64,000 nt of DNA from an uncultured Actinomycetes bacterium (GCA_963814365.1 CAWFCL010000010.1:7342-71341), one strand, 5' to 3'; shown: positions 1 through 46,431, numbered from the stretch's first letter. Numbers and translations are program-made. The notes: generated by a model from the sequence alone, not told the origin.

Positions 1-334
1 GCCGTCGTAGTCGCTTCTCGATCTCGATGCGCAACGCTACTAGTGCCAGGTTCGGATCGCCCTGGGCAACGTCGAGAAACTCAGGAAGGCTTGCTGGGCC
101 CGGGCGGCCAGATATCTGAGGTGTGATCTTCTCCCCAGCCTCTTTCAGATCCCGGAACTTTATCTCCCACCCTCCGGGGAACTTGGCGCTCTCGATCAGC
201 CTTGAAAGCCAGGGCAGGATGGCGACTATCAGAAGGCCGATCGCAATTGCATCCACCGGCAGACGTGGCCATATCAGGTGCACCGTGACTAGGGCGATTG
301 CCGCGAGTGAGATTATCAGTTTCAACCAGAACAC
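1..334 (-). CDS. hypothetical membrane-anchored protein, 3' end beyond window; possible fourth integron cassette ORF
   Basis: Own translation of the minus strand from GTG at 334 (GGGGGG 6 nt upstream) gives MFWLKLIISLAAIALVTVHLIWPRLPVDAIAIGLLIVAILPWLSRLIESAKFPGGWEIKFRDLKEAGEK...DPNLALVALRIEIEKRLRR, open to position 1. It has two hydrophobic helices. It is absent from the ORF track, presumably because it runs off the edge. Tracked ORFs 81..341(-) and 123..350(+) look like wrong frames. Confidence 0.5.
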   Translation of the reverse strand, partial: MFWLKLIISLAAIALVTVHLIWPRLPVDAIAIGLLIVAILPWLSRLIESAKFPGGWEIKFRDLKEAGEKITPQISGRPGPASLPEFLDVAQGDPNLALVALRIEIEKRLRR

Positions 335-340
335 AGGCCA

Positions 341-445
341 CCCCCCGTAAGGCTAACGTCTCTGCGCTTCAGCGGCTCCCGTTGGCCATGGTACTCCATG
401 CATTAGCCAGCGCAGGAAGTCCGGCTGCTAGCGCTTGTTAGCGTT
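341..445 (-). repeat. attC-like imperfect palindromic repeat (after cassette ORF 457..1518)
   Basis: Bounded by GGCTAAC (351-357) and GTTAGCG (437-443). It shares the core GTTGGCCATGGTACTCCATGC with the copies at 1621-1727 and 4027-4128, and its arms are complementary. Confidence 0.6.
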
Positions 446-456
446 CACCCTCACGA

Positions 457-1518
457 CTAATTGTCTACGGGTATCTCGTAGGTGTTGGAACCTGGTTGAC
501 CGCCCTCGTACACTTGGTACCATCCCGGGTCCGCCATATCGTGGAAGACGCCATACGTCTTGCCAGACTCAGAGTATGAACCAACTGCATACGTGCCACC
601 ATCCCCCCAGTACGCTACCTCGTTCCGCACGGTTGCGGCTTCGGGCGCGAGTGCAGCCTCGGCGCTACTGACTACGACGAACACAATGCTCGGCTGGATC
701 TCATTCAGCACGTTGGGTGTCACGACCGAGGGATCACACGTCCCCAGTTCACTGTATGCCTCTTCAATAGCGTGCTTCGCGTTCTCAACAAGCCCTTCAC
801 AGTCCGCGTCCTGTGCATATTTCTCCTGGTCGACGGTCTGCTTCGGGACATCGTATGGGGGCTTGACGGCGGCGGTATGCACGCTTGCCGCGAAGACGGC
901 TTCCAAGACGGCGTCGGGCCGGCCAACGTATGTGTAGTAGAACTCGTACATGTACTCTTGGGTGGCCATGAACACGATGTGTCGCTGGAGCGGCATGTCT
1001 GTCCCCAGAAGGTGGAGTGTCACATACGCTCTATCTTCTGTCAGGCTCTCAACCGACCATTCCGATTCTTCGTACACGAACATCTCCGCGCCCACGAGCG
1101 CTTCCATGGAAGAGTCACCGTCAGTCTGGACCAAGAGCCCTCCCTCTATGGGGAAACGTCTGACTTGAACACCCGGGATCGATCCGTCCTTGTCTGGCTG
1201 GCCCAACACAACAAGCAGGGGACCCAAGTTCTCGAGGCTGTAGTCATTGCGCTCTTGGATATCGGCCTTGAGACCCGACAGGTAGGACTGCATAGAGCTG
1301 CGGCTGCCTGGATCGGGATTAGACGCGGCTCGCTTCTCAAGCGCAGCCATCACGTCCGGATCTGCCGGATCGCCACCGACGAACGAACCTGGCAGTTGCA
1401 GAGAAACGTACTCACTATGGAAAGTGACTGACTCAGAAGATCGCGTGGAGCAACCGCTGAGCACCAACGCCAAGACCAGGAACGTGCCCAGAGCCATGAA
1501 GCATGATTTCCGCATCAC
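457..1518 (-). CDS. secreted lipoprotein, unknown function (cassette ORF)
   Basis: 353 aa ORF with N-terminus MMRKSCFMALGTFLVLALVLSGCSTRSS (signal peptide plus lipobox LSGC). It sits between two attC-like repeats. Confidence 0.75.
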   Translation of the reverse strand: MMRKSCFMALGTFLVLALVLSGCSTRSSESVTFHSEYVSLQLPGSFVGGDPADPDVMAALEKRAASNPDPGSRSSMQSYLSGLKADIQERNDYSLENLGPLLVVLGQPDKDGSIPGVQVRRFPIEGGLLVQTDGDSSMEALVGAEMFVYEESEWSVESLTEDRAYVTLHLLGTDMPLQRHIVFMATQEYMYEFYYTYVGRPDAVLEAVFAASVHTAAVKPPYDVPKQTVDQEKYAQDADCEGLVENAKHAIEEAYSELGTCDPSVVTPNVLNEIQPSIVFVVVSSAEAALAPEAATVRNEVAYWGDGGTYAVGSYSESGKTYGVFHDMADPGWYQVYEGGQPGSNTYEIPVDN

Positions 1519-1620
1519 GATGTGGCCCCCTCACGAGGAGACGTACTGACTCTCCGGAAAGAGCACGATACGCCGCTACTCAAGATGCAGTGTGACATTC
1601 GACTCTCCATCAGAACTCCG

Positions 1621-1727
1621 CCCCCCTTTGTAACGCTAACGTTCTAGCGCGTCAGCCGCGCCCGTTGGCCATGGTACTCCATGCGATAGCCAGCGCAGGA
1701 TGTCGGCTGCACGCGCTTGTTAGCGGT
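1621..1727 (-). repeat. attC-like imperfect palindromic repeat (belongs to cassette with ORF 2989..3990, now separated from it by IS30)
   Basis: CGCTAAC (1635-1641) ... GTTAGCG (1719-1725). The first ~34 nt are identical to the copy at 4027-4128. The central hairpin is CATGG-AGTA-CCATG. Confidence 0.6.
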
Positions 1728-1733
1728 CGCGAA

Positions 1734-2830
1734 TTCAGATACTAACTGCAACACCCCGCGGACCTCAAGGTGAGGCGACCTGGGACACTTCAGGTTCCTC
1801 CCATCCGCCAAGAAAAGGGGAACCGTTGCAGAAGTATCACCAGATCACCTCAGAGGAAAGATACGCCATCGCAGCTCTAAGGCGGCGAAGATTGTCCCTG
1901 CGCGAGATCTCGCGCGAGCTGGGTCGAGCTCCATCGACCGTGTCGCGAGAGATCAGGCGCAACCGTCGCGCCGACGGTGGGTACCGGGCCCAAGCGGCCT
2001 GTGAGCACACCAGCGCACGCCGTAGACGCTCAAGACGCAACGAGCGCATCGGACCTGAGGCATGGAGGCTCGTGGAGCGCCATCTGCGCCTGGACTGGAG
2101 CCCGGAGCAGGTCGCCGGCCACCTGCGCAAGGAGGGTCTCCTCAGAGTCAGCCACGAGACCATCTACGTGCGCATATGGAGCGACAAACGTGCCGGCGGA
2201 GACCTATACATGCATCTGCGCCAGGCCTCCAAGAAGCGCCGCAAACGCTACGGCGCTTATGACTCGCGGGGACGACTCCCTGGTAAACGCCACATATCGG
2301 AGCGACCGAGCGAGGTCGAGACCCGGCGGACGGTGGGCCACTGGGAGATCGATTCGGTCATGGGCACCGAGCATGGCCGCAACAGCGTGATCACCATGGT
2401 GGAGAGGGCCACAGGGTATCTCGTGATGGGCAAGCTCGAACGACACTGCGCGCTGGACGCCACCCAGTGCATCGTGGGGCTCATCGACGCGCATGCCGGC
2501 CGGGTGGCGACCATCACCGCAGACAATGGCACGGAGTTCCACTCCTACCGGGAGATCGAAGCGGCCACGGGTGTGCGGTTCTACTTCGCCACTCCGCACC
2601 ACTCCTGGGAGCGCGGCACCAACGAGAACACCAACGGCCTCATCCGTCAGTACTTGCCCAAGAAGACCAGCTTCGCCCATCTGACCCAAGCTGACTGCGA
2701 CGCCATCGCAGCCAAGCTCAACTCACGGCCCAGGAAGCGGCTGGGCTACAAGACTCCGGAGGAATGCTATGTACAAGCCGGGTAGAAGAGAGCGTCCTGC
2801 TCAGAGGAAACGTTGCACTTCAAACTTGAA
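1734..2830 (+). mobile_element. IS30-family insertion sequence (~1.1 kb)
   Basis: Contains a single IS30-type transposase ORF. Candidate imperfect terminal inverted repeats are TTCAGATACTAACTGCAAC (1734-1752) and GTTGCACTTCAAACTTGAA (2812-2830), with 13/19 matches. The exact ends and target duplication are not resolved. Confidence 0.7.
1826..2785 (+). CDS. IS30 family transposase
   Basis: 319 aa. N-terminal HTH: ITSEERYAIAALRRRRLSLREISRELGRAPSTVSREIRRN. DDE core: WEIDSV...TADNGTEF...HHSWERGTNENTNGLIRQYLPK. RBS GGGGAA lies upstream of the TTG start. Confidence 0.95.
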   Translation: MQKYHQITSEERYAIAALRRRRLSLREISRELGRAPSTVSREIRRNRRADGGYRAQAACEHTSARRRRSRRNERIGPEAWRLVERHLRLDWSPEQVAGHLRKEGLLRVSHETIYVRIWSDKRAGGDLYMHLRQASKKRRKRYGAYDSRGRLPGKRHISERPSEVETRRTVGHWEIDSVMGTEHGRNSVITMVERATGYLVMGKLERHCALDATQCIVGLIDAHAGRVATITADNGTEFHSYREIEAATGVRFYFATPHHSWERGTNENTNGLIRQYLPKKTSFAHLTQADCDAIAAKLNSRPRKRLGYKTPEECYVQAG

Positions 2831-2988
2831 CTTACAGGTCGGACTCACTCCTGAGTGATCCCCAGAGGTCTGCAAGGTATTGCAGCATTGCGTGAGTGGC
2901 GGGCCCCCTGCTTCTCCCACAACTCCTAGAGGTAGAAGCTTCGCTCTTCAGCGGGGCTTCTTGAACCGGCTCGAATACATGATGGCCC

Positions 2989-3990
2989 TCAGGGGAGAAT
3001 GCGGAAGCTATTGGCGCTCAGGTCGAAGTCGGCCAGTCTTGCCTGCAACTTCGTGCTAGGCACAGCATAGCGGACTATCCAGACGCCTGCGGGCGCTTTC
3101 ACGAAGTAGTCCACGAATGATGTGGGGTCTCCCTCCACCACGACCCGGGTTGCCTCCCGCCCGTCAATAGTAAGATCAGTCCTGCTTCGAAGCTTCGCCC
3201 CGGAGACCTGATAGTTCGCCCGATCAACGTATTCTTCGAGGGAAGGGTCCTCTGGTCCCGGCGGGATGGCAAACGCCTCCACAAGACTGAGGCCCTCGTA
3301 TTCGGTCAAACTTACGGAGTCGAGGACGTAGATGGGCTCCTTGAGATTCTCGAACTGGCTGGCGAAACTTCCCGGTCCCATCGCTTGGAGGCTGGAGACT
3401 GTCGTCGGGTCCTTCATATTCCAGTCGAAGTAGGGAGGCAGGTAGATTTCAGCACCTCCCCCCGAGACTTTGGTCCAGTCTGCGGGGGGTTCTGCCGGCA
3501 GACCCGATTCAGGAGCGATTGGAGATTGGTCCGACTCGGTTTTCGACAAATCGATCTGATTGGTGGCCCTCTCAATCGCGAAATTCCCGCTCGCCTTCTC
3601 TCCCTGGGCAACGATCTGGTCGAAGCTTGGCGTTTGCCATACTCCCGCAGGCTCTACAGGGTCAGGCAGCCAATAGAGTTCGTAGGTGTACTTTCCAGGA
3701 GATAAACCTCCCAGCTCGATTGAGTGGGAGGGGACGGGGGCCATGGAGTTTGAGTAGTTAGAAGACTCCCATGCAACGTTGCCGTTGGTATCGACAACAC
3801 GAACGGCGTAGGCGCCCACGGGGCCATCTGACCTGAGAGATATGGTTGCCTGCTGGGTATCGTCGTCCACAGAGATGGTCGCCTTCAGAGGGCCGATCTG
3901 CGTCTCGTTCGACGAACAGCCAGCCAAGAGGAATATGACGACCAGCGCTGATAGAGCCGCAAGAACCCTGATCTCTCTTCGCCAGGTCAT
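2989..3990 (-). CDS. secreted lipoprotein, unknown function (cassette ORF)
   Basis: 333 aa ORF with VLAALSALVVIFLLAGCSSNE lipobox. No recognisable catalytic motif. Confidence 0.75.
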   Translation of the reverse strand: MTWRREIRVLAALSALVVIFLLAGCSSNETQIGPLKATISVDDDTQQATISLRSDGPVGAYAVRVVDTNGNVAWESSNYSNSMAPVPSHSIELGGLSPGKYTYELYWLPDPVEPAGVWQTPSFDQIVAQGEKASGNFAIERATNQIDLSKTESDQSPIAPESGLPAEPPADWTKVSGGGAEIYLPPYFDWNMKDPTTVSSLQAMGPGSFASQFENLKEPIYVLDSVSLTEYEGLSLVEAFAIPPGPEDPSLEEYVDRANYQVSGAKLRSRTDLTIDGREATRVVVEGDPTSFVDYFVKAPAGVWIVRYAVPSTKLQARLADFDLSANSFRILP

Positions 3991-4026
3991 GCATCCCCCT
4001 CTCCAATACAGAATCGCTTGATTGCG

Positions 4027-4128
4027 CCCCCGTACCGCTAACGTTCTAGCGCGTCAGCCGCGCCCGTTGCCCATGGTACTCCATGCAGTAGGCAGCGCCG
4101 GTGTCGGACTGCACGCGCTGGTTAGCCT
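4027..4128 (-). repeat. attC-like imperfect palindromic repeat (end of cassette with ORF 4046..5293)
   Basis: CGCTAAC (4036-4042) ... GTTAGCC (4121-4127), with the same core as the other copies. The upstream ORF reads through it and stops at TAG 3 nt before the GTTAGCG box on the minus strand. Confidence 0.6.
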
Positions 4129-5293
4129 GGGGCATGAACTTTCCCACGAAAATCTCCAACCCCGAGTAGTTCGATTGCTCGCCAGCCCAGCCAATCCACG
4201 CCACTAGGTCTCCACATACGGCAGGGAACCAATCTTGGTAGTCGTTCTGGGTAAGCCGTCCGATACCGCCCGAAGGCGTCCAGACGTATATCTCCATGTC
4301 AGCGACCTCGTCATCATCTGAGCCGCTATACCAGACGACGCGATCTCCGGATACCGTCGGGAAGAGGTCATAGCGGTCGTCGGAGGTGAGCCGAGTCACA
4401 CCCTCCGACGGAGCCCACGTGAATACCTCGCTGCTCGTCATATCGTCGCCTAGGTCATCATCCCAGACCACACGATCGCCATCGACAAGAACCTCCGACC
4501 CGGAGGAGATGCTGAGTGTCGCCAATTGGACAACCCCGTCGGTCGGTGTCCAGCTAAGAACTCCGAAGCCGAGTTCGCCCTCCCCCTTCCACACAACCCT
4601 ATCGCCCGATACGTCGGGGATGCCTGTACTGTTCCCACTCTTGTTCAGTTCAACGACCCCGCCGGTGGGCGTCCAGGTGAATACTTTGTGGTAGTTGTTC
4701 TCGTCGTGGCTGCTTTCAATCCAGACCACTCGCTCCCCCGATATCTGTGGATAGCCGCAGAAATGGCCCTCCTGAGTGAGCTGGACTACGCCGGCGTCTG
4801 CTCTCCACATGAAGATCTCATGGCCTTTGCCGCTAGCGACATCACCATTGCCCATCCACACCACTCGGTCGCCGGAAACCTGTGGGACCTTGTCTTCGTA
4901 GTCGTTGGTCGTGAGTTGCAGAATGCCGTCCGCCAGCGTCCAGACGAATACTTCGTTGTCTTCTCCGCCGTCCGTACCACCAGGTGCCTGCCAGGCGATC
5001 AACTCGTCAGAGACCGCGATCGCCTCCTCGTCTACTTCGTTCACAGTCACCTGAACGACACAATCAGATGCCGTCCATGTGAAGACTTCCCAATCACGAT
5101 TCGCGTCAATGCCACCGCGGCCGCTCCACACCACACGTTCACCACAGACGAGCGGCGCTTGAACACTGTACGCGTCAGTCGTGAGCCGTGTGACTTCAAA
5201 ACCTTCCACGACGCCAGGTGAACACGCAGACACCGAGAAGAGAGAAAGACTCAGTAGGACAAACAGCACGATAGAAGTCTGGTAACGCTTCAA
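4046..5293 (-). CDS. lipoprotein with ~8 tandem beta-propeller-like repeats (SGDRVVW signature) (cassette ORF)
   Basis: 415 aa. TTG start with AGAGGGGGA RBS. Lipobox LFSVSACSPG. The recurring motif (V/I)SG(D/E)RVVW...E(I/V)F.W has ~45-50 aa periodicity. The last ~27 aa are encoded by the attC-like repeat. Confidence 0.8.
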   Translation of the reverse strand: MKRYQTSIVLFVLLSLSLFSVSACSPGVVEGFEVTRLTTDAYSVQAPLVCGERVVWSGRGGIDANRDWEVFTWTASDCVVQVTVNEVDEEAIAVSDELIAWQAPGGTDGGEDNEVFVWTLADGILQLTTNDYEDKVPQVSGDRVVWMGNGDVASGKGHEIFMWRADAGVVQLTQEGHFCGYPQISGERVVWIESSHDENNYHKVFTWTPTGGVVELNKSGNSTGIPDVSGDRVVWKGEGELGFGVLSWTPTDGVVQLATLSISSGSEVLVDGDRVVWDDDLGDDMTSSEVFTWAPSEGVTRLTSDDRYDLFPTVSGDRVVWYSGSDDDEVADMEIYVWTPSGGIGRLTQNDYQDWFPAVCGDLVAWIGWAGEQSNYSGLEIFVGKFMPQANQRVQSDTGAAYCMEYHGQRARLTR

Positions 5294-5304
5294 ATTCCCC
5301 CTCT

Positions 5305-5415
5305 GGCTAACAGTACTTCTGTAGTCTGCGCCAATAGACTGCGACAGCAGATCGGTGCCCGCATACTCCCAGAAATGTGACTCTCACTGCCCCCTCGGCT
5401 CCCGCGTCGTTAGCC
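5305..5415 (-). other. candidate attI/attC-type recombination site between integrase relic and first cassette
   Basis: 111 nt segment bounded on the plus strand by GGCTAAC (5305-5311) and GTTAGCC (5409-5415). On the cassette (minus) strand the GTTAGCC box lies 11 nt before the first cassette ORF start. The internal sequence is unrelated to the other three repeats. Confidence 0.35.
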
Positions 5416-5474
5416 TGAATCGGCACGGATGATGGTCCTCGAAAGCCGATGTTATGCAGACTGTATAGACAGAG

Positions 5475-5782
5475 CTACATCGAGTCAAGCGGGCTTCGGA
5501 CCCCAAGGCAACCTCGATTCAGCACGCGCGTAGATCATTACTGTGCTGAGGTCCACGTGACCGGGACGCTCTTGGGTAGTCTGCTCAACACCTCCTTCGC
5601 GGCGCATTGCACCAGCGTCTCGTGGACATGAGGGCGCGGATCTCGACCGGAGGGCGGAGGTGGTAAGACTGTATGTAGCGGCTCACTCAGGCGAGGTGAG
5701 CGCGCTCCTCCGTGCCGCGGCTGCAGTTCCGCGCACGTAGAGCGTCACGAACCTGGTCCAGGAGTCTTGGTGGTCGGTCCAC
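5475..5782 (-). pseudogene. intI: integron-type tyrosine recombinase relic (internal deletion, nonsense codon, frameshifts)
   Basis: Own translation. The N-terminal SAM-like segment is (GTG 5782) DRPPRLLDQVRDALRARNCSRGTEERAHLA-TGA(5687-5689, where Trp is expected)-VSRYIQSYHLRPPVEI. It then jumps to the extreme C-terminus EGGVEQTTQERPGHVDLSTVMIYAR / LNRGCLGVRSPLDSM* (stop 5475-5477). The catalytic core between them is missing. Confidence 0.7.
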
Positions 5783-5817
5783 GCCTGCCCGATGTCCAGA
5801 TGCGCAGCTCTTTGCCG

Positions 5818-6456
5818 CTAAGACTGGGCGATGGCCGCGGTTATGCCGTGTATCAGCATCTGCACCCCTATGACAGCAAGGATGAGACCCATCAGACGAG
5901 TCACTACCTTTATGCCGTTGTCGCCGATGTACTTCACGAAGCGCCCTCCGAAGACGAAGAAGACGTAGCTGATGACGCACAGCACCAAGAACGCTACGAC
6001 GGTCACGACGAAGTTCGATACACCCCCGGCCGAAGCGAAATTCATAGCGGTAGCGATAGTGCCGGGTCCCGCAAGAATGGGCATCGCTAACGGCGTTATG
6101 GCCACCTCCATCTCGGCCTCCAAGCTCTTCTGCTTGTCTTGCTCACTGGGGTGTTGGATGGGAGAGTGTTCGCCCCCCTGCAGCATGTGATAGCCGATGA
6201 TCGCGACCAGCGCCCCGCCTGTGATCTGAAAGGCCGCCAGCGTGATGCCGAAGAGTTCGAATATCAATTTCCCCGCAGCTGCGAATACAGTGACGATGAT
6301 GAAGCTCAGGATGAGTGCTTTGGCCGCGATCTTGCGTGTGGTTCTCCGGTCGTCCTGCGCGGTGAGGGCCAGAAACACGGGTGTATTGGCGATAGGATTC
6401 ATGATCGCAAAGAACCCCATGAATACCGAGATGGCGTGAGTGATGCTCGCGCTCAT
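5818..6456 (-). CDS. MarC family (UPF0056) integral membrane protein
   Basis: MSASITHAISVFMGFFAIMNPIANTPVFLALT... is the typical MarC N-terminus, and the protein has multiple TM segments. ATG at 6456 is chosen over the tracked upstream start. Confidence 0.85.
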   Translation of the reverse strand: MSASITHAISVFMGFFAIMNPIANTPVFLALTAQDDRRTTRKIAAKALILSFIIVTVFAAAGKLIFELFGITLAAFQITGGALVAIIGYHMLQGGEHSPIQHPSEQDKQKSLEAEMEVAITPLAMPILAGPGTIATAMNFASAGGVSNFVVTVVAFLVLCVISYVFFVFGGRFVKYIGDNGIKVVTRLMGLILAVIGVQMLIHGITAAIAQS

Positions 6457-9738: not shown

Positions 9739-9800
9739 GGCGCCTCGCGCCGAACCGCGTGGCGCGCGACGCCGCGGCGGCCCTGACGGTGCGCCGTCCG

Positions 9801-10643
9801 CTACATCTTGGCCATCTTGTCGTCTTTGTACTCGACCTTGTCGAACTCGTGCGACGACTTCACCAGGTTGAACGAGTACATCTCGGCATAGACGTGCTGA
9901 CGCAGGTTCTGCTCCACCACTTCGCGCCACGGGCGCGCGGCCACGTGATGGGTCAGGCGGCGGGTGGAGCGGCTGGTCTTCATGAGTATGCGGGCGATCT
10001 CCCAAGCGCGTTCGACGATCTGGTCGCGCTCGACGATCTCGTTCACCGCGCCCAGCCGCAGGCAGGTCTCGGCGTCGATGCCCTGGTTCAGGTAGCTCAT
10101 GTAGTTGCCGCGCTTGATGCCCAGGATCTTCTGCAACGCCAGGGTCATGCCGTCACCGGGCACATGGCCCATGAGGAAGTGGTCGTCTTGCAGGATGAAG
10201 TCCGGGGTGCACAGGGTGATGTCGCTCATCATGGCCATCTCCCAGTGGATGCCCCGGCCGTTGATGGCGGTGATGGTGGGGATCTCGATGTCGTTGACGA
10301 AGTTCTCGACCACCTTCAGCGTGTCGTAGATCTGCACGTTGAAGCGCTGGTCGTCGTCGTCGGACTGCTCCACGTCCTTGAACGAACTCGCGTCCACCTC
10401 GTTGATCCACTTCTCGCCGGTGGCCGTGAAGATGAGGATCTCGTTCTTGGTGTCGTGGCCGATCTGAGTCCAGAGCTCGGAGATGGCATGGTGCATCTGA
10501 TAACTCCAGCGCACGTGGCTATCCAAGGTGTGCATGCGCACCTCGAGGATGCCGTCCTCGGACCTCTTGAACTTGAAGAAGCGCTCGAACCGCTTTGAGT
10601 ACTCCTCAAGCGTGGGCATGTGGACGTAGTCTTGTTCCGCCAT
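9801..10643 (-). CDS. enoyl-CoA hydratase/isomerase (crotonase) superfamily protein
   Basis: 280 aa with a crotonase-fold pattern: ILIFTATGEKW..., PTITAINGRGIHWEMAMMSDITL. Confidence 0.8.
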   Translation of the reverse strand: MAEQDYVHMPTLEEYSKRFERFFKFKRSEDGILEVRMHTLDSHVRWSYQMHHAISELWTQIGHDTKNEILIFTATGEKWINEVDASSFKDVEQSDDDDQRFNVQIYDTLKVVENFVNDIEIPTITAINGRGIHWEMAMMSDITLCTPDFILQDDHFLMGHVPGDGMTLALQKILGIKRGNYMSYLNQGIDAETCLRLGAVNEIVERDQIVERAWEIARILMKTSRSTRRLTHHVAARPWREVVEQNLRQHVYAEMYSFNLVKSSHEFDKVEYKDDKMAKM

Positions 10644-26926: not shown

Positions 26927-28947
26927 ACGGGGCTCCTTTCGCCGCCTGCACGGACCATGGGTATCTCGACATGAAAAGTGGTGCCGGCACCGGGTTCTGA
27001 ATCGAACCAGATGTTGCCTTGGTGCATCTTGACGATGCCGTACGAGATGGGCAGCCCCAGACCCGTACCCTTGCCGATACTCTTGGTGGTAAAGAAGGGT
27101 TGAAAGACCTTGTCAGCGGCCCCGGCGCCTATGCCGCTACCTTGATCGGACACGCTGAAGCGCACCCGCCCAGTATCGAGGTGCGTGCGGGCGATCACTC
27201 GTACCTCGCCCGAGCTACCCTCCATGGACTCCACCCCGTTCTTGATCAGGTTGACGAGCACCTGCGTCATCTGGTCGCGATCGAGGTCCGCGTACGATCC
27301 CGGCGTGACATCCACGACTATCTCGACCTCGCGGTCGGGACCCGGCGGCAGATTGCAGGCCGCTCCATCAGCGGCCGACGCCACCAACTCCTCCAACGAC
27401 ACGGACTCGATGCGAACGCGACTCTGCCGGGCGAAGTCCAACAGGCTGCCGATGATCTTCTTGCAGCGCTCCGACTCCTCAGACATCAGCTTGAGATCGT
27501 GGTCCAGGTCGCCGCGATCCTGTAGCTTGCGCTGCAGTATGTGGGAGTAGAGCAGGATGGTGCTGAGAGGATTGTTGAGCTCATGAGCCACGCCCGCCGC
27601 CATCTGGCCCATCGACGCAAGCTTCTCGCTGTTGATGAGGTGGCGATGCACGTCGCGCAGGTTGTTCCACGGCACGTTCAGCTCGCTGCAGACCCGTTCA
27701 GACTGGTCGATTATGAACGGTAGACACATGGCTTCCTCGGCCATGCCTTCGTAGACTGCCCTGGCTTTTGTCCGGCACGTCGCGTATCCGCAGGCGCCGC
27801 AATTGAGTTCGTCCTCGGGGAAGAACTTGTTGGTGTGAGCCAAGATCTCGCGGATCTCTTCCTCAGTGGGACCCACCGACCTCTGGTCGTCAGGCTCGAA
27901 GCGGCGAATCAGCGACAAGGACGCGCCGCCGGACTCGTAGGCCGGCATGGCACCTTCGTCTTGGCGATGCCGGCTGGCCTCGGCGAATTCGGCCACGCGG
28001 CGCCGGCGGGTCACCCCAGGCTCGTCGCTCCCGGCGCCGGGTCCCGCATAGCAGCCTCGGCACATCAGGGCCTCTACCAGTAGGGGGCCGGCCAATTTGC
28101 TGGAGAGGCTATCCAGCGTCTCCACCGTCTCGTCCTTGCCACTCACCACCACCAGGCGGGGGTCCATGACACCGTCCCCTATGCCGGCGCTCTCGAACAT
28201 GCCGCCCGGGACCGGATAGATGCGAGCCGTGCCCGCATACGGCGGGTCAAAATCCTTCGGCGGCGCTAGGGCCGGGTCCGCACCCCGCGCGGCCAGGACA
28301 CGGTGCACCTCGTCCAACGTCAACACCTCATCCACGACCCCGACGATCTCTGGGTCCAGTATCTCCGCCTTTTTGGCCACGCAGGGGCCGATGAAGACGC
28401 AACGTACATCCTGCCCGTAGCGCCGCTTGACCGCCAGGGCGGTCGCCACCATGGGCGAGACCAGGGGCATGATGGAGGCTGTGAGCTCCGGGTGATACTT
28501 GCGCACGTAAGACACGACCGCCGGGCAAGCGCTTGCGATGTGTAGACCCGTCGGGTCGCTCGCCAAGAGGTCGCGGCAGGCTTCGTTCACTAGGTCGGCT
28601 CCGTACGCCACCTCGACCACATACGTGAAACCGGCCTTGCGTAGAGCGCCGACGATCTGTTCCGGCGGCGCCGTGAACCCTACCGGGAACGAGGGAGCCA
28701 ACAGCGCGGCGGCGATGCCGCGATCGAGAAGGGCGAGAGTGCCCTCGATACTGCTCGTGTACGCTTTGGCACCCTGCGAGCACACCATGGTGCAGTTGCC
28801 ACAGCTGATGCAGCGGTCGGCCACCACCGAGGCCTGGCCGTCCTCGATGCGGATTGCCTTGGCCGGGCAGTCCCGCACGCAGGTGTAGCAGCGACGACAG
28901 TTCTGTTTGATAGTGGTTATGACGCCGGTCATGGTCTCTTGGCTCAC
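26923..28947 (-). CDS. sensory [FeFe]-hydrogenase-like domain (HydS-type) fused to a histidine kinase
   Basis: 674 aa intact ORF. It contains two 4Fe-4S ferredoxin motifs (CRRCYTCVRDCP, CISCGNCTMVC). The H-domain motifs are ASACP (canonical TSCCP), GPCVAKKAE (MPCxxKxxE) and EALMCRGCYAGPG (ExMxCxxGCxxG). CGACGYATC-x16-C forms a Cx2Cx4Cx16C motif. This is followed by HisKA (AAGVAHELNNPLSTI) and HATPase_c (NLIKNGVES, DQGSGI, GTGLGLPISY). Confidence 0.85.
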   Translation of the reverse strand: MSQETMTGVITTIKQNCRRCYTCVRDCPAKAIRIEDGQASVVADRCISCGNCTMVCSQGAKAYTSSIEGTLALLDRGIAAALLAPSFPVGFTAPPEQIVGALRKAGFTYVVEVAYGADLVNEACRDLLASDPTGLHIASACPAVVSYVRKYHPELTASIMPLVSPMVATALAVKRRYGQDVRCVFIGPCVAKKAEILDPEIVGVVDEVLTLDEVHRVLAARGADPALAPPKDFDPPYAGTARIYPVPGGMFESAGIGDGVMDPRLVVVSGKDETVETLDSLSSKLAGPLLVEALMCRGCYAGPGAGSDEPGVTRRRRVAEFAEASRHRQDEGAMPAYESGGASLSLIRRFEPDDQRSVGPTEEEIREILAHTNKFFPEDELNCGACGYATCRTKARAVYEGMAEEAMCLPFIIDQSERVCSELNVPWNNLRDVHRHLINSEKLASMGQMAAGVAHELNNPLSTILLYSHILQRKLQDRGDLDHDLKLMSEESERCKKIIGSLLDFARQSRVRIESVSLEELVASAADGAACNLPPGPDREVEIVVDVTPGSYADLDRDQMTQVLVNLIKNGVESMEGSSGEVRVIARTHLDTGRVRFSVSDQGSGIGAGAADKVFQPFFTTKSIGKGTGLGLPISYGIVKMHQGNIWFDSEPGAGTTFHVEIPMVRAGGERSPV

Positions 28948-30662
28948 TTGACCGCGGTAGTCTCTGCGAGCAGAGAACCGCTCCGGTCCACATAGCTACG
29001 ATGCAGCAGCCGGTGCGAGACCTCACCCAGCGGCCTGCCCAAGTACTCCTCGTACAGGGAGGCTACGCTCTGGTTCTGGTGCGAAGCGCGGGTCAGTGCC
29101 TGATCGTCGGTGTCGCGCAACTGATCGAGGCGCTTACGCAGATCGCCTGCTCCCGCCCCGTATGGCTGGCCCCCACCACCGGCGCACCCGCCCGGGCAGG
29201 ACATCACCTCGACGAAGTGCATGTCACGGAGCGTCTCCTCCAGAGCCTGACCGAGACGTCCCAGACCGTTCACCACCGCCAACTTGAGCGTGGTGTCGCC
29301 GGCCTCCACTGTGAAGCACTTGACCCCTTCCGGGCCGCGCGCCTCGGTAAGCGGACCTTCGGGCACCTCTGCCCCCACCATGGTGGCCGCTGTCCTGACC
29401 GCGGCCTCCATCACGCCTCCGGTGCCGCCGAACAGCCGGGCCGCGCCCGTCGCCTCGGCGAAGGGCGCGTCAAGAGGCATCCGCTCCTCACATCTGTCGA
29501 AGTCGATGCCGAACCGCTGCCATAGATCGCTCAGCTCACGGGTGGTGAGCACATAGTCCACGTCGCCCAAATCCTGAGCCTCGTACTTCTTGGCGGTGCA
29601 GGGCATCAGCGAGAGGATCACCAGCCGCTTGTGCCCTATGCCGGCGAGCTGGGGGTAGATCTCCTTGATGAGCGCCCCCGCCATCTGCTGGGGCGACTTG
29701 CAGCTGGACATGTGCGGTATCAGGTCCGGCCGATGCAACTCGACGTAGTTGACCCAGGCCGGAGAACAACTGGTGAACATGGGGAGCGGTCCGCCGTTCT
29801 GCAGTCTCTCGACCAGTTCGGTTGCCTCCTCCATGATGGTGAGGTCGGCCGCGAACCCGGTATCGAACACGGCAGCCACGCCGATGCGCTTGAGCGCAGC
29901 GGTCAGGTGTTCCAACATGGCGGGGACCGTGGGGGACTTGCTGCGCGCCGCCGCCAAGGTGGCCGGCACCGCCGGAGCGATCTGCGCCACCACGACCGTG
30001 TCGGGGTCGGCCAAGGCTGCGACCACCTCGTCCACGTGACTACGCTCCATCAAGGCTCCGGTGGGACAGACGCGCACGCATTGGCCGCAATAGGTGCAGC
30101 CCGAGACGTTGATGCCCTTGTAGAAGCCCGGACCCACTTGGGTGCGAAAGCCCCGATCGATGAAGTCGATGGCCCCGATACCCTGGATCTCATGGCACAT
30201 GGTCACACAACGACCACATAGCACGCACTTGTTGGGGTCGCGCCATATCGAGGGCGACGAGATGTCCAGCGGCTGGTCCTTCTTCATGCCCACGTACTGT
30301 CTGGGACGGGCGCCCACTTCTCGCGACAACTCGGCCAACTCGCAACTGCCGGAGCGGTGACACACCAAGCAGTCTTGCGGATGGTTGGCGACCAGAAGTT
30401 CGACTATTGCCCGGCGGGCCTTTAGGACGCGCGGCGTGTGCGTCTTGACAGACATGCCGTCCGCAGCGGTCAGCGTGCAGCTGGTCTGCAGCTTGGGCGA
30501 ACCTTCGACCTCCACCACGCACAGACGGCAAGAGGCGGAGGGACCGGGCGCCCCGTCCAAGGCACAGAGATGGGGGATATCTATGCCGGCTTTGCTCGCT
30601 ATCTTGAGTACCGTCTCGCCCGGCGCGAACTCGAGGACTCTTCCGTTGATGGTGATGCTCAC
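28944..30662 (-). CDS. hydA: [FeFe] hydrogenase catalytic subunit HydA (NuoG-like N-terminus)
   Basis: GTG start at 30662, 6 nt after AGGAGAG. N-terminal 2Fe-2S and His-ligated 4Fe-4S region (CRLCVVEV, HPQDCLVCHRSGSCEL), then 2x4Fe-4S (CVLCGRCVTMC, CTYCGQCVRVCP). H-cluster motifs are FTSCSPAW (non-canonical), MPCTAKKYE and EVMSCPGGCAGGGGQP. The tracked 701-aa ORF includes a spurious N-terminal extension over hydB. Confidence 0.9.
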   Translation of the reverse strand: MSITINGRVLEFAPGETVLKIASKAGIDIPHLCALDGAPGPSASCRLCVVEVEGSPKLQTSCTLTAADGMSVKTHTPRVLKARRAIVELLVANHPQDCLVCHRSGSCELAELSREVGARPRQYVGMKKDQPLDISSPSIWRDPNKCVLCGRCVTMCHEIQGIGAIDFIDRGFRTQVGPGFYKGINVSGCTYCGQCVRVCPTGALMERSHVDEVVAALADPDTVVVAQIAPAVPATLAAARSKSPTVPAMLEHLTAALKRIGVAAVFDTGFAADLTIMEEATELVERLQNGGPLPMFTSCSPAWVNYVELHRPDLIPHMSSCKSPQQMAGALIKEIYPQLAGIGHKRLVILSLMPCTAKKYEAQDLGDVDYVLTTRELSDLWQRFGIDFDRCEERMPLDAPFAEATGAARLFGGTGGVMEAAVRTAATMVGAEVPEGPLTEARGPEGVKCFTVEAGDTTLKLAVVNGLGRLGQALEETLRDMHFVEVMSCPGGCAGGGGQPYGAGAGDLRKRLDQLRDTDDQALTRASHQNQSVASLYEEYLGRPLGEVSHRLLHRSYVDRSGSLLAETTAVK

Positions 30663-30672
30663 GGCGACTCTC

Positions 30673-32664
30673 CTAGGCGACGAGGGCGATGGATTGTTTG
30701 GGACAAGCGTCGACACAGGCGCCGCAACCGATGCAGCGGTCGACCACGATGTAGTGAGCGGCCTTGCGCTCACCCACGATCGCCCCCGACGGGCACTGCT
30801 TCCTGCACGCCCCGCACCCGGTGCACGTCGCGTTATCCACGGCATAGATACGGAGCCCCTGACACACACCGGCAGGACAGCGGTCCTCCATGATGTGCGC
30901 CTCGTACTCATCGCGGAAGAAGCGGAGTGTGGACAGCACCGGATTGGCGGCCGACTGTCCCAGACCGCATAGCGACGTGTCCTTGATGGTCTCGGCCAAC
31001 TCTTCCAGATGGAGCAGTCCGCGGAAGCGCTCCAACCGCCCCACCTCATCGCCCACCGGGCGCTCCGTGAGAGCGGTCAGGATCTCGTGCATGCGGGTGG
31101 TGCCCTCGCGACAGGGGGCACACTTGCCACAAGACTCGTTGCGGATGAACTCCATGAAGTACTTGGCCACGTCCACCATGCAGGTGCGCTCGTCCATGAC
31201 CACCATGCCGCCCGAACCCATCATGGCGCCCAATTCCTGCAGCTTGCCGTAGTCGGTGGCCACGTCCAGGTGAGCTTCGGGGATGCAGCCCCCGCTGGGG
31301 CCACCTATCTGCACGGCCTTGATATCGTGACCCTCGGGTGCGCCCCCGCCGATGCCGCACACCAGGTCGCGCAGGGGCAGACCCACCGGCACCTCCACCA
31401 GACCGGTGTTGCGCACCCTGCCACTGAGCGCGAACACCTTGGTCCCAGCGGCCTCACCCAACCCCAGGTCGCGGAACCACTCCGCCCCGTTGCGCAGGAT
31501 GCCGGGGATGTTGGCCAGAGTCTCCACGTTGTTGAGCACGGTGGGCATGCCGTGAAGACCCGCTACCGCCGGGTACGGCGGCCGCGGCCGCGGCATACCC
31601 CGTCCGCCTTCGATGCTCGCCAAGATGGCGGTCTCTTCGCCACAGACAAACGCCCCGGCGCCCTGCTTGATCACCACATCAAAGTCGGTGAGACTGCCCA
31701 GGATGTTGGCGCCCAGGAGCCCGGCCGCCTTGCACTGCGCGATAGCGCTCTGCAGACGTTCGATAGCCAAGGGATACTCGGCGCGACAGTAGATGTAGCC
31801 CTTGCTCGCCCCGATAGTGTAGGCCGCGATGAGCATGCCTTCGAGCACGCGGAAGGGGTCACCCTCCAAGACTGCCCGGTCCATGAAAGCACCGGGGTCA
31901 CCCTCGTCGGCGTTGCAGATGAGGTACTTGGTGGCGGCCACTGTATCCAGGGCCACCTTCCACTTCTGCCCCGTGGGGAAGCCCGCCCCACCCCGTCCGC
32001 GCAGTCCGGACTCGATGACCAGGTCGCATACCTCTTCGCGGGTCATGGTGGTGAGCGCTCGGGCCGCTGCGGCGAAGCCGCCGGCGGCCAGGGCCGCATC
32101 CAACGAGGCGGGATCTACCAGCCCACAGTTGTCCAACACCACCCGGGTCTGGCGACTGAAGAACGGGGTGTCCATGACCAGGGGCACGTCCTCGAACCCC
32201 TCTGCCTGACCGTACCGTCCGTACAAGAAGCGATTGCGCAGGTCGCGCTTCTCAAAGACGGCCTCCAGGAACTCCCCGACGTTCTCGGGGCTCAGGTCGC
32301 AGTACGACAGGCGCGGACCGTCGTCGAGTCTGACGTCCACGAAGACCTCGCGCTGGCAGAACCCCACGCAACCGACCTCCACCAGGCTCGCCTGCACTGA
32401 GTGTTCCCGCAGATACGCTTCGATCTTGTCGATGACATGCAGGGCACCGTTCGCGCGGCCGCAGGTGCCGGCGCCGACGAAGAGCACGGTGCCCTCACCG
32501 CCACGCCGCGCGCTCTCCAGGCGCCGCCCCCTCAGGGCGCGGCACGCTTGGTCCGTATGACAGAGTGGTCCCGTCTCGACGCAGGCGATCAGATCTCTGC
32601 AAGGGCGTTCCGGCGAGTGCGTGCACTCATCACAGCAGGCCTCGACCAGCCGCGTCGCGCTCAT
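30673..32664 (-). CDS. hydB: NADH-binding FMN/Fe-S subunit HydB (NuoF-like) of bifurcating hydrogenase
   Basis: GLRGRGGAGFPTGQKW (FMN), ESCGKCAPCREG (N3 cluster), a thioredoxin-like 2Fe-2S N-domain (GTCGRANG ... GCVGFCQRE), and C-terminal 2x4Fe-4S (CTGCGACRKQCP, CIGCGACVDACP). Confidence 0.95.
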   Translation of the reverse strand: MSATRLVEACCDECTHSPERPCRDLIACVETGPLCHTDQACRALRGRRLESARRGGEGTVLFVGAGTCGRANGALHVIDKIEAYLREHSVQASLVEVGCVGFCQREVFVDVRLDDGPRLSYCDLSPENVGEFLEAVFEKRDLRNRFLYGRYGQAEGFEDVPLVMDTPFFSRQTRVVLDNCGLVDPASLDAALAAGGFAAAARALTTMTREEVCDLVIESGLRGRGGAGFPTGQKWKVALDTVAATKYLICNADEGDPGAFMDRAVLEGDPFRVLEGMLIAAYTIGASKGYIYCRAEYPLAIERLQSAIAQCKAAGLLGANILGSLTDFDVVIKQGAGAFVCGEETAILASIEGGRGMPRPRPPYPAVAGLHGMPTVLNNVETLANIPGILRNGAEWFRDLGLGEAAGTKVFALSGRVRNTGLVEVPVGLPLRDLVCGIGGGAPEGHDIKAVQIGGPSGGCIPEAHLDVATDYGKLQELGAMMGSGGMVVMDERTCMVDVAKYFMEFIRNESCGKCAPCREGTTRMHEILTALTERPVGDEVGRLERFRGLLHLEELAETIKDTSLCGLGQSAANPVLSTLRFFRDEYEAHIMEDRCPAGVCQGLRIYAVDNATCTGCGACRKQCPSGAIVGERKAAHYIVVDRCIGCGACVDACPKQSIALVA

Positions 32665-44127: not shown

Positions 44128-46409
44128 TTGGAATCCCCCCCTTGTTCGAAGCGCATGCGGTGGTAGTACGCCCGGACGACCTCATATGTCGCCGGGTCCC
44201 GCCTGCCTGTAGCGGACCCAGTAGGTGACCACCTGCTTGATCATGCTGCAAACATAGGTGTCGTCAGCTGCGTCATAGAACTTGTCCCCAGACTCCTCCG
44301 CCAGCCAGATGGCCTCCCTGAGGTCGGCGGCGGATATGAGCTGGCCGTCCAATCTCCTGCTGCAGCTCGTCGCCTATGACCAGGGTCAAGCGCATCCCAG
44401 GGGTGAGACTCCGGCTGGAAGTCCAGGTCTTGCATCTGCTTCATCAGCTCCCTCTTCACCCTCAGGCTGTTGTCACGCTTCTGCTGCAGGCTCGGCACTC
44501 GCGCGCCTGGGTCCAGTCCAAAGACCACATCCAGCACATGGGCGCACGGCTTGCCCCGGGAGACGAACACCTCTTTACAGTTGGCACAATATACGATGTA
44601 CGGGCTGTCGCCGGCCTCCGCTCTATGCCGGGTGATCTCGTCATACAGGCCAGGGTTTGCCACCCGGATGTGGCCGCCGTGCCCACAGCAACGATTGTGC
44701 TCTTTGAGCTCCTCCAGCTCCACCCCTGCCTTGCCGGCCAACTCCCTTACCCCGGACTCCATCCCCGTATCACCTCTAGCCGCGCAGGGATCGAACACCG
44801 CCGCCTTGGCGTAGGGCGCCCCGGGCGCGGAAGCCGCCGGGGACGCTGAAGGCGCAACGCTATCTGCCTGAGCAAGCAGCTCATAGAGCGAGACCCCGGG
44901 AACCTCCGGCAAGAACGAGCGGAAGAGACTCACACAGGTGGCGCAGGCGAACACCAGCGTGGGCTTGCCGAGGTCGTCCCAGGTCCTCTTGGTCGCCTCC
45001 AGGTTGGCCTGCAGACGGACGTCGTCACCCGCCCAGTAGGCCGGGGCTCCGCAACACCCCAGCATCACACCCGCCTCGTGGGTCTCTCGCAAGAAGTCGT
45101 ATGCCCGCAGCACGTGCTCGGGGTTCGACGCGCCCAGTTGGCAACCGGGATAGAAGGCGTATTCGCACGTCTGCTTCCCCTCCGGCGCGGAGGCGAACGC
45201 ACCCTCGGCGGTAGCGAAGTCCATCTCGCGCAGCCAGAAGTCGTGCAGCGCAGCCGGATGCACACCGGCGCTCATCCGAGCGGACCGGGAGAACTGCAGC
45301 AGCGCTCCCATATCCACGTCCACCGGGCAAACGGATTTGCAGTAGCCGCAGATGTTGCAGGAGTAGGTCTCCCTGGTGAGGGAACGGCTTGATAGTGGGG
45401 GGCTCGCGCCCATGTCCGTGAACACCTCGTCCGCGATCTTGTGTGGGTCCTTACGGAAGGCCTTGAGCATCTCGCAGGCCTCTATACACGTTTCGCAGTC
45501 GCACAGCATGCACCGAGAAGCTTCGCGTTTCGCCTCCTCTTCCGTGTAGCCGTCAGGACCGGAGGGCTGCACCAGAGGCGCAGAAGCCACCCCGCGATGC
45601 TCCAAGAAACGACCACAGCCTTCCTGGTCTTCGCGCTCGTGCACCCGCGCAGGCTTGCCCGTCTGCAAGAAGGCCTCGATCACCCGAGAGGCGCCGGCCC
45701 CCTGGGCGATGCCCTCCATCAGCCCGGCTCCGCACATCGCACCTCCCGCGAACACTTTGGGCACCGCGGTGGTGAACAGATCGCCGTCCCATCCGGAACA
45801 TAGGCCAAAGGAGTCGCCCGCCGAGCCCGCGGCCACATAGACCGCGTCAAAGTCGGCGACTTCGGCGAGATCCCGGACTTCGGCGCCGTAGCGGAAGTCC
45901 ACCTGCACGGCCGAGAACTGCAGGGCGATGTCCGCGTCGAACTCGGCGAAGCGAGGGTGCGAGCGCAGGGCCCCGCCCCACCCCTCCTGTCTGTCAAACA
46001 CAGTGACCTGGTACCGCTTCTGGGCCAGATGCAGAGCGCAGGAGAGCCCCGCCGGTCCCGCTCCGATCACGGCGACACGCTGGCTCTTGGGGGGTATCAC
46101 ATACGACTGCGGCTTCCGTTCACGCACGTGTCGCAGACAGGCGGCCTCCAAGTCGCGCAGTGCCAAAGGTTCATCGCCGAGTACCACTCGCTGGCAGCAC
46201 TCCCTGCATGGCTGCTCGCAAAGCGCGCTGACGATAGCCGGGAACACGGTGGCATCGCGCAACACCTTGTAAGCGGCGCCCCACCTACCCTTGGCCGTCT
46301 TGTCCAGAAGAGACCGGATGTCCATGCGAAAGGGGCACGCATACGAGCAGGAGGCAGGCTCCCCTCGAAAGCAGGCCGCGGTGTACGCCGTGGCGTCCTC
46401 TGGTCTCAC
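44124..46409 (-). pseudogene. FAD/NAD(P)-dependent oxidoreductase (GltD-like) fused to Fe-S and CCG (HdrD-like) domains; three frame changes in the last ~100 codons
   Basis: VAVIGAGPAGLSCA dinucleotide fold; CMLCDCETCIEAC and CNICGYCKSVCP clusters; CCG motifs GCCGAP and NRCCGHGG. The corrected tail is ...ESHPWDAL/TLVIGDELQQEIGR/QLISAADLREAIWLAEESGDKFYDAADDTYVCSMIKQVVTYWVRYRQAGPGD/EVVRAYYHRMRFEQGGDSK*. Confidence 0.8.
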
Positions 46410-46431
46410 TGGTGCACGACCCGACCAGCCC

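Follow-up and report, generated by a model that had tools for sequence, protein, structure and literature searches.

A probable sedentary chromosomal integron with a co-oriented, degraded integrase gene in an uncultured Actinomycetes bacterium

One end of a 64-kb stretch of DNA assigned to an uncultured Actinomycetes bacterium (the window: 64,000 nucleotides, GCA_963814365.1 CAWFCL010000010.1:7342–71341) carries a broken integrase-like gene followed, on the same strand, by genes that alternate with imperfect palindromes. This raises the question of whether the region is an integron cassette array and, if so, whether the shared orientation of integrase and cassettes is native to it. From position 6492 downwards, the minus-strand order is a marC-family gene, the relic of an integron integrase gene (intI), a non-coding interval, three units that each consist of an open reading frame (ORF) and a repeat, and a partial ORF4; an IS30-family insertion sequence (IS) on the opposite strand splits the middle unit. 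All of the elements listed in an earlier, sequence-only reading of this DNA were found on the minus strand, with slight corrections to the coordinates. We consider it very probable that positions 1–5797 (minus strand) are the integrase-proximal end of a sedentary chromosomal integron whose co-oriented intI has been destroyed.

IntI-like translations are spread over three frames between the marC-family gene and the non-coding interval. They correspond to IntI residues ∼5–51 (5781→5640, with an in-frame TGA), ∼246–259 (5630→5591) and ∼293–327 (5575→5478, over two frames), and end at a stop codon at 5477–5475; the relic, previously noted at 5782→5475, could be aligned at 5797→5478. Relative to an IntI of ∼325 residues, gene nucleotides ∼153–735 (∼583 bp) and ∼776–877 (∼100 bp) are missing. 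In total, ∼69% of intI is deleted and ∼31% is left, with an in-frame stop and two frameshifts in addition. The frame-1 (RLLDQVRDALRARNCSRGTEERAHLA*VSRYIQ), frame-2 (VEQTTQERPGHVDLSTVMIYA) and frame-0 (RVLNRGCLGVRSPLDSM) peptides, when concatenated, gave TIGR02249 (E 6e-13, 48.8 bits) and PRK15417 as their sole matches in NCBIfam, and the N-terminal SAM-like domain as the Pfam match. The fragments are 50–64% identical to the intact IntI proteins of related loci. Lost from the relic are the box I Arg, the Lys and the HxxR box, which make up three of the four catalytic regions, together with the IntI-specific domain. Because only the tyrosine region is left, the window intI is, as judged from its sequence, a dead gene. 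No second intI was found within the 64-kb window. The deletion is not an assembly artefact, because the spacing of 525 nt between marC and ORF1 is identical in an independent short-read assembly (Logan, ERR12035938).

Related loci were sought with a 22-mer taken from the core of the repeat (CATGGAGTACCATGGNCAACGG), which was run against 185,579 species, each represented by one genome. This gave 15 loci in five metagenome-assembled genomes (MAGs), which all came from sample MFD04716 and carried the label uncultured Actinomycetes or Actinomycetota; a further 23 contigs, mostly short, were found in JGI metagenomes. The loci found with the 22-mer differ from the window, and the sequence that they share with it consists of the repeats and the IS alone. 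Searches with the relic peptides (tblastn) identified full-length intI genes in three related loci, L010 (plus strand, 1320–2303), L001 (minus strand, 5266–4289) and L007 (plus strand, 1592–2575), so the proposed comparison with related loci did yield intact genes. The three proteins scored 457–486 bits on TIGR02249 (cutoff 265), covering positions 1–315 of the 315 in the model, and their scores on Xer models were far under the cutoffs. The L007 protein aligned end to end with VchIntIA (PDB 2a3v; E 2.7e-87), without gaps through the IntI-specific region and with W219 included. On the strength of these model scores and of the full-length alignment, the predicted integrase of the intact relatives is IntI and not a Xer or phage-type recombinase. 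The same identity holds for the relic, whose fragments match integron-integrase models only. The clade comprises at least 8000 environmental relatives at E ≤ 1e-60, with top matches 72–89% identical.

The orientation seen in the window is reproduced in these relatives. In all three, which come from three MAGs labelled Actinomycetes and lie on contigs of 0.11, 1.10 and 1.77 Mb, intI is on the same strand as the array and the array lies directly downstream. For example, in CAVQZD010000002 the array starts 340 nt past the intI stop codon and contains 29 attC sites in 19 kb (L010→L009→L011). The ‘inverted-integrase’ layout claimed for the window is thus also that of its intact relatives, and probably that of one more distant locus, L041. 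MarC and the SDR gene are not neighbours of intI in the related loci, so the chromosomal position is not conserved. In L041 (8001–11459; JGI 3300027536, a 433-kb contig), a 75%-identical IntI has co-oriented genes of the Polyketide_cyc2, SnoaL and beta-lactamase families downstream of it. Weak hits to our attC model occur there at 9740–9814 and 10263–10374, the second one between the SnoaL and beta-lactamase genes, and L041 may be another co-oriented integron.

The repeats were examined as attC sites, that is, for R″ (RYYYAAC) and R′ (GTTRRRY) boxes, an imperfect L″/L′ stem, extra bases on the R″–L″ arm and a length of ∼57–141 nt. The three copies in the window (attC B, C and D) have pairwise identities of 78.5–90.3%, and their 16-mer core occurs three times in the 64 kb, at these sites, against a chance expectation of 0.55. 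Using nhmmer, we found 72 copies of the repeat in the related loci, and a covariance model of our own was built from 59 aligned copies. This model detected 120 sites in 170 kb of related loci, spaced 0.3–3 kb apart, and within every locus all of the sites were on one strand. In the window the model found the three sites alone (112–120 bits); the next match scored 14 bits, and the three sites themselves, read on the opposite strand, only 12–13 bits. The sites of the family are 90–95 nt long, with NNCTAAC/GTTAGNN cores and the coding-strand consensus NNNN-CTAAC-AA-GCGCGT-G-CAG-(N)-CCG ... stem-loop ... CGG-CTG-ACGCGC-TAGAAC-GTTAG-NNNN. Searching the whole window with Rfam at gathering thresholds matched no family, and no tRNA was found either.

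The hairpin is supported by covariation. A structure of 31 pairs is 94.8% paired over the 59 sequences, nine pairs show compensatory changes, and the covariation score of 0.110 compares with 0.052 after shuffling (reached in 0 of 500 cases) and with ≤0.04 when the pairing partners were slid. When the plus (bottom) strands were folded, as the earlier reading had proposed, free energies of −27.6 (attC B, z = −3.5), −31.4 (attC C, z = −5.2) and −22.7 kcal/mol (attC D, z = −2.6) were obtained. Extrahelical bases were present as expected, with a bulged base on the R″–L″ arm in 58 of the 59 sites. The first extrahelical base (alignment column 23; window positions 4112, 1710 and 428) is a coding-strand G in 57 of 59 sites, corresponding to C on the presumed recombined strand. 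A shorter type of attC, ∼77 nt long and scoring 25–42 bits with the family model, shares arrays and strand with the 92-nt type (L019 631–707, L029 2005–2083, L012 4459–4536, L038 252–329, L015 1626–1704 and L004 2672–2748).

If the units are cassettes that have moved as circles, the R″ bases outside CTAAC should pair with the R′ bases outside GTTAG of the preceding site, as both derive from the attC of one circular cassette. For 44 consecutive pairs of sites, the uninterrupted complementary run averaged 3.09 nt with the preceding R′ and only 1.02 nt with the site's own R′. Of six positions, 3.66 matched for the preceding site, compared with 2.18 for the R′ of the same site and 1.82 for random sites (Wilcoxon p = 5e-6, n = 44). 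Both junctions that can be tested within the window show the signature in full: the CGGT that follows attC B is complementary to the ACCG that precedes attC C (4/4 nt), and the CGTT that follows attC C to the AACG that precedes attC D (4/4 nt). The complementarity of the 4 nt before CTAAC with the 4 nt after the preceding GTTAG is, on this sequence evidence, the footprint of cassette excision and insertion. The cassette-array organisation proposed for the window is therefore upheld by the covarying hairpin, by one-strand arrays beside intI and by the R″/R′ complementarity across cassettes. The crossover is placed at G|TT, with a precision limited to the conserved GTTAG.

The R″/R′ complementarity is symmetric and gives no polarity by itself. 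However, read on the coding strand, the array has attI at its 5′ end, the extra unpaired attC bases are on the R″–L″ arm, and most of the longer cassette ORFs, including all four of the window, are on the coding strand. In addition, 58 of the 59 sites have a conserved G right after AAC on the non-coding strand; the bottom strand of known attC sites likewise has a G after AAC, and the polarity rules agree (PMC2727003). From these four features, the non-coding (window plus) strand is presumed to be the recombined bottom strand. The orientation of the longest ORFs in related arrays (39 co-oriented, 20 opposite) is noisy in GC-rich DNA, especially for inserts of ∼190 bp, and was used only qualitatively.

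The interval between the intI relic and ORF1 contains a 111-nt site (5415→5305, GGCTAAC ... GTTAGCC). It was considered as an attC and rejected: our attC model gave no score, the fold is weak (z = −1.7 and −2.2) and the left box is not conserved. When the regions following intI were aligned, a block was found to be conserved up to and including the crossover core (window, AGAAGTACTGTTAGCC; L010, ATAAGTACTGTTAGCC; L001, AGAAGTATTGTTCGAC). In these three loci AGAAGTA(C/T)TGTT(A/C)G(C/A)C is kept 150–170 nt past the intI stop codon; the block was not found downstream of intI in L007. In L010 and L001 the R″ of the first cassette matches the bases that follow the attI core. Because of this match, the conservation of the block after intI and the absence of an attC-model score, the 111-nt site is identified, by sequence comparison, as attI. 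Only its right-hand part is kept in L010 and L001, and the left GGCTAAC box is probably coincidental. Thus the boxed site described earlier does exist at these positions, but as attI rather than as an attC-like palindrome.

A sequence TTGAC-17/18-TATACAGT directly follows the intI stop codon and is shared by the window, L001 and L007 (three of four loci). In the window it reads TTGACT-17-TACAGT (5488→5460), a sigma-70-like match, and is a candidate cassette promoter, proposed by inference only. The coordinates of the features are collected in Table 1. The lengths of the three complete cassettes (1298 bp for the second with the IS subtracted) fall within the earlier estimate of ∼1.27–1.31 kb.

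Table 1. Features at the left end of the window and its chromosomal boundary. Cassettes are measured from G|TT point to G|TT point.
Feature	Position	Strand	Basis and remarks
marC-family gene	5818..6456	−	PF01914, 180.5 bits; chromosomal neighbour at the intI 5′ end, integron boundary
intI pseudogene	5478..5797	−	tblastn and blastn against the intact L001, L010 and L007 IntI genes
Candidate cassette promoter TTGACT-17-TACAGT	5460..5488	−	Consensus scan; overlaps the last intI codons and points into the array
attI region	5305..5415	−	Block AGAAGTACT-GTTAGCC at 5320→5305; G|TT at 5311|5310
Cassette 1, 1269 bp	4042..5310	−	ORF1 5293→4046, 415 aa, lipobox VSAC
attC B, 92 nt, GGCTAAC ... GTTAGCG	4036..4127	−	Own covariance model, 112.6 bits
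Cassette 2, 2402 bp (1298 bp without IS)	1640..4041	−	ORF2 3990→2989, 333 aa, lipobox LAGC
IS30-family insertion sequence	1733..2836	+	Transposase 1826..2785; NF033563 transpos_IS30, 300 bits (cutoff 80)
attC C, 92 nt, CGCTAAC ... GTTAGCG	1634..1725	−	Own covariance model, 120 bits
Cassette 3, 1283 bp	357..1639	−	ORF3 1518→457, 353 aa, lipobox LSGC
attC D, 93 nt, CGCTAAC ... GTTAGCC	351..443	−	Own covariance model, 113.3 bits
Cassette 4, start only	1..356	−	ORF4 GTG at 334; membrane/DUF4145 protein, clipped by the window end

As had been read from the sequence, the three complete cassettes encode lipoproteins, each with a lipobox (Table 1), and a further ORF, ORF4, begins after the last repeat and leaves the window; its GTG is 22 nt past the last G|TT. 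The lipoprotein encoded by ORF1 has beta-propeller repeats (TIGR04275, 90.7 bits, cutoff 85), while ORF2 and ORF3 are lipoproteins without any family match. A domain shared by the three lipoproteins was considered and rejected, as their likeness is limited to the signal peptides. The last ∼27 codons of ORF1 and its stop lie inside attC B (window 4046–4127), the stop being the TAG of the conserved spacer CTAGAAC; because ORF1 runs into attC B, almost all attC sites of the family are hit when its C-terminal peptide is used in tblastn. A homologue of ORF1 (36–39% identical) is present in the L003 cassette array, and one of ORF3 (62% identical) is in a cassette downstream of the intact L007 intI.

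The cassettes beyond the left end of the window were seen in L039 (ENA ERZ25039527), which is 96.2% identical to window 2476→1 and runs on past its end. The two have an identical cassette order over the common 2.5 kb. The leftward extension that had been called for thus added cassettes, with 13 attC matches in the 12 kb of L039. L039 holds the complete ORF4 (189 aa; DUF4145, 24.5 bits, cutoff 23.1), and its other cassettes encode ParE with an antitoxin, a zinc-ribbon protein, HigB with a helix-turn-helix protein, a reversed Fic with a MazE-type antitoxin, an alcohol dehydrogenase, Phd with ParE, and a nucleotidyltransferase with a HEPN protein. Because of this content, the array is long and of sedentary type and is not restricted to lipoproteins; the ‘lipoprotein-only’ description holds just for the three attI-proximal cassettes. 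A crude lipobox pattern matched 5 of 39 co-oriented cassette ORFs, two of which are ORF2 and ORF3 of the window (the ORF1 cassette was outside the test set). That lipoproteins occupy all three positions nearest the promoter may have a meaning, although this was noticed post hoc.

Two recurrent features of the cassettes were noted in passing. Many cassettes start with a leader, NNNN-AC-(A/G)(A/G)GGG(G/T), in the first 12 nt after GTTAG (window 4037–4026, 1635–1624 and 352–341), with its G-rich, Shine-Dalgarno-like run a few nucleotides upstream of the start codon. Secondly, a ∼300-bp cassette (∼190 bp plus attC, with the R″ extension GGGTGCAGG) and no convincing ORF occurs in many copies in two MAGs (L002 2810–5886, L010 2643–5521 and L015 7875–7984), and is the first cassette after attI in L010. 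Positions 2945–3054 and 5412–5521 of L010 are identical, indicating that a block of several cassettes was duplicated.

The IS is 1104 bp long and interrupts cassette 2 immediately beyond the R″ box of attC C; its boundaries were set by comparison with the copy in L012. IS30-family copies are present in the window (1733–2836), in L012 (∼4537–5640, 88% identical) and in L039 (∼3862–4953, 74%). The three copies are in three different cassettes but at the same position, with the IS end ...TGAAT followed by 9 nt and then CTAAC on the coding strand; the 9 nt consist of (T/C)CGCG and four variable R″ nucleotides. These three cases suggest that this IS30-family group targets attC sites. As in the IS1111-attC group, whose elements target attC sites, the IS copies have a fixed position relative to attC, here in three independent cassettes. 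In contrast to that group, which inserts inside attC, the window IS is just outside the R″ box, and its transposase is an IS30-family DDE enzyme with HTH_38 and rve domains, not of the IS110/IS1111 type.

ORF2 and ORF3 were each also found alone on Logan contigs of 1252–1264 bp (ERR12035938, ERR15459710). The ORF3 contigs (1254–1264 bp) end inside attC C and attC D, while the ORF2 contigs (1252–1253 bp) have their upstream end inside attC B and their downstream end ∼28 nt into the IS. Breakage of short-read assemblies at repeated attC sites may explain why such integrons are under-reported.

The array adjoins 58 kb of ordinary metabolic and regulatory genes on a 125-kb contig, including a group A6 [FeFe] hydrogenase with a NuoF-like subunit, molybdopterin aldehyde oxidoreductases, two-component kinases and PstB. 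Genes suggesting anaerobic life were observed at 28944–32664, 44241–49087 and 58733–61102; among them are the hydrogenase and its NuoF-like partner, a dicluster oxidoreductase beside a molybdopterin aldehyde oxidoreductase, and a protein resembling the alpha subunit of 4-hydroxybenzoyl-CoA reductase or xanthine dehydrogenase. The host is apparently an anaerobe. The metabolic neighbours, the homogeneous attC sites (78–90% identical), the long arrays (at least 13 attC in L039 and 29 in a relative) and the toxin–antitoxin cassettes support the earlier view of a chromosomal, sedentary integron. A search of the window for the WhiB-like motif, an actinobacterial marker, found none; therefore the phylum assignment rests on the titles of the MAG records, whose loci have the attC family, the IS and homologues of cassettes in common with the window.

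Two alternatives would each remove an essential part of this interpretation. Imperfect intergenic palindromes of ∼92 nt, found at more than one locus in several MAGs, could be extragenic repeats of the repetitive extragenic palindromic (REP) or miniature inverted-repeat transposable element (MITE) kind that lie by chance beside a dead tyrosine-recombinase gene, with no cassette system involved. However, such repeats would not be expected to keep to one strand within each locus, to form arrays that begin at a conserved site straight after intact IntI genes or to have complementary variable half-boxes around each gene. A check for copies elsewhere with our covariance model found no more in the 64 kb, the other 58 kb of the window being free of them, and we regard this explanation as exceedingly improbable. 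Only marginally better is the idea that the co-orientation arose by a local inversion or rearrangement in one genome, tied to the decay of intI. The window gene has indeed been heavily rearranged by two deletions, and an inverted intI is known as an isolated case in the class 1 integron of Acinetobacter baumannii 1656-2 (PMC4889954). Yet three intact relatives have the order intI 3′ end, attI and cassettes on one strand, with the attI block kept in L010 and L001, and the distant L041 also has co-oriented small genes and weak attC-model matches downstream of its IntI. We therefore judge a purely local origin of the layout to be highly improbable.

The question of whether the array is still live is less one-sided. 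A second, intact IntI elsewhere in the genome could shuffle the cassettes in trans, which would make the window array a live cluster of attC sites lacking an integrase of its own (a CALIN in the terms of IntegronFinder). The attC family is present at several loci per MAG (two contigs of CAWFCN01; three places in CAWJDT01), the window attC sites are intact and score as high as those beside intact IntI, and 22% of IntI-encoding genomes are reported to have more than one (PMC9024848). There is, however, no second intI within the 64 kb, and the 96%-identical L039 has an unchanged cassette order across the shared 2.5 kb. Activity in trans is therefore a real possibility, although we consider a frozen array the likelier state. 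Several points weigh against our interpretation of the locus as a sedentary integron of this lineage. The attC model was made from the family it was applied to, so what it shows is that the family is coherent, not that it belongs to the attC sites in general. On the presumed recombined strand the first extrahelical base of the family is C, unlike published attC sites, in which it is ‘almost exclusively a G’ (PMC2727003), and the central spacer is strongly asymmetric (2 nt on one arm, 6 nt on the other). The footprint documents past cassette mobility in the family and not in this genome, and recombination itself is deduced from it. The promoter is a consensus match in a region where promoter-like sites are no commoner than chance. 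The Actinomycetota label comes from record titles, and the close relatives of IntI include one labelled Aminicenantes (73% identical). As regards the extrahelical base, a G-to-C swap reduced IntI1-mediated integration by just 2.7-fold (PMC2727003), and C may for this reason be a tolerated variation rather than a sign of a new mechanism. A stronger proposal would be that these are native, vertically kept integrons of anaerobic Actinomycetota, with an IntI adapted to C as the strand-selecting extrahelical base and to the 2/6-nt spacer (a mechanistic variant of attC recognition) and with an IS30 group that targets attC and appears to parasitise the family; we think this rather unlikely.

Taken as a sedentary integron, the locus could have worked as follows. 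In the related genomes with an intact gene, IntI is encoded upstream of the cassettes on the same strand and would recombine the folded bottom strand of a cassette attC with attI (AGAAGTACT-G|TTAGCC), just past intI. Cassettes would enter in one orientation and would be transcribed from the promoter at the intI 3′ end or by read-through from intI. In the window genome, two deletions and several frameshifts have destroyed intI, which would leave the array frozen unless IntI acts from elsewhere in the genome. The IS30-family element landed later beside one attC. The three cassettes nearest to attI, encoding unrelated lipoproteins, would be expected to be the best expressed.

Elements of this kind are known, and the unusual features here are the host lineage and the C extrahelical base. 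Like the Vibrio cholerae superintegron with its repeats (VCR), the window family is chromosomal and has long one-directional arrays, homogeneous lineage-specific attC sites, toxin–antitoxin cassettes, some of them reversed, and a TIGR02249-type IntI that aligns with VchIntIA. It differs in that intI is divergent there and co-oriented here, the extrahelical base is C and not G, and the spacer is 2 nt on one arm and 6 nt on the other rather than 5 nt per arm. Moreover, the window host is an uncultured, apparently anaerobic Actinomycetota and the window intI is a pseudogene. The Treponema-type inverted integrons (Boucher 2007, via PMC4889954) also have integrase, attC sites and cassettes on the same strand and the array at the intI 3′ end, but their host phylum and attC family are different; the likeness drawn here is one of layout. 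Treponema is among the groups with known co-oriented integrases, which standard software can handle (PMC4889954, PMC13323075); the inverted-integrase group is reported to be paraphyletic (PMC4889954). With intI destroyed, automated annotation would probably call the window element a CALIN of at least three attC sites. Unlike a CALIN, it keeps a recognisable intI relic and attI, and with these still attached it is directly recognisable as a former complete integron.

No complete integron turned up in Actinobacteria in the complete-genome surveys of 2016 and 2022, one of which proposed that an unknown mechanism hinders the establishment of integrons there (PMC4889954, PMC9024848). A metagenome study from 2026 described a ‘virtual absence’ of integrons in abundant Actinomycetota (PMC13323075), while a 2021 review listed Actinobacteriota among the phyla with integrons detected (PMC8618304). 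Viewed alone, the window is a more modest case, a well-preserved example of integron decay in an otherwise ordinary sedentary chromosomal integron. Together with its relatives, it provides concrete Actinomycetota-labelled examples, with intact IntI, attI, up to ∼30 cassettes and one attC family in at least five species-level MAGs. With the attC family it can be asked whether an extrahelical base other than G is tolerated, or preferred, by IntI, and the family of loci is useful for asking what lets integrons persist in this lineage.

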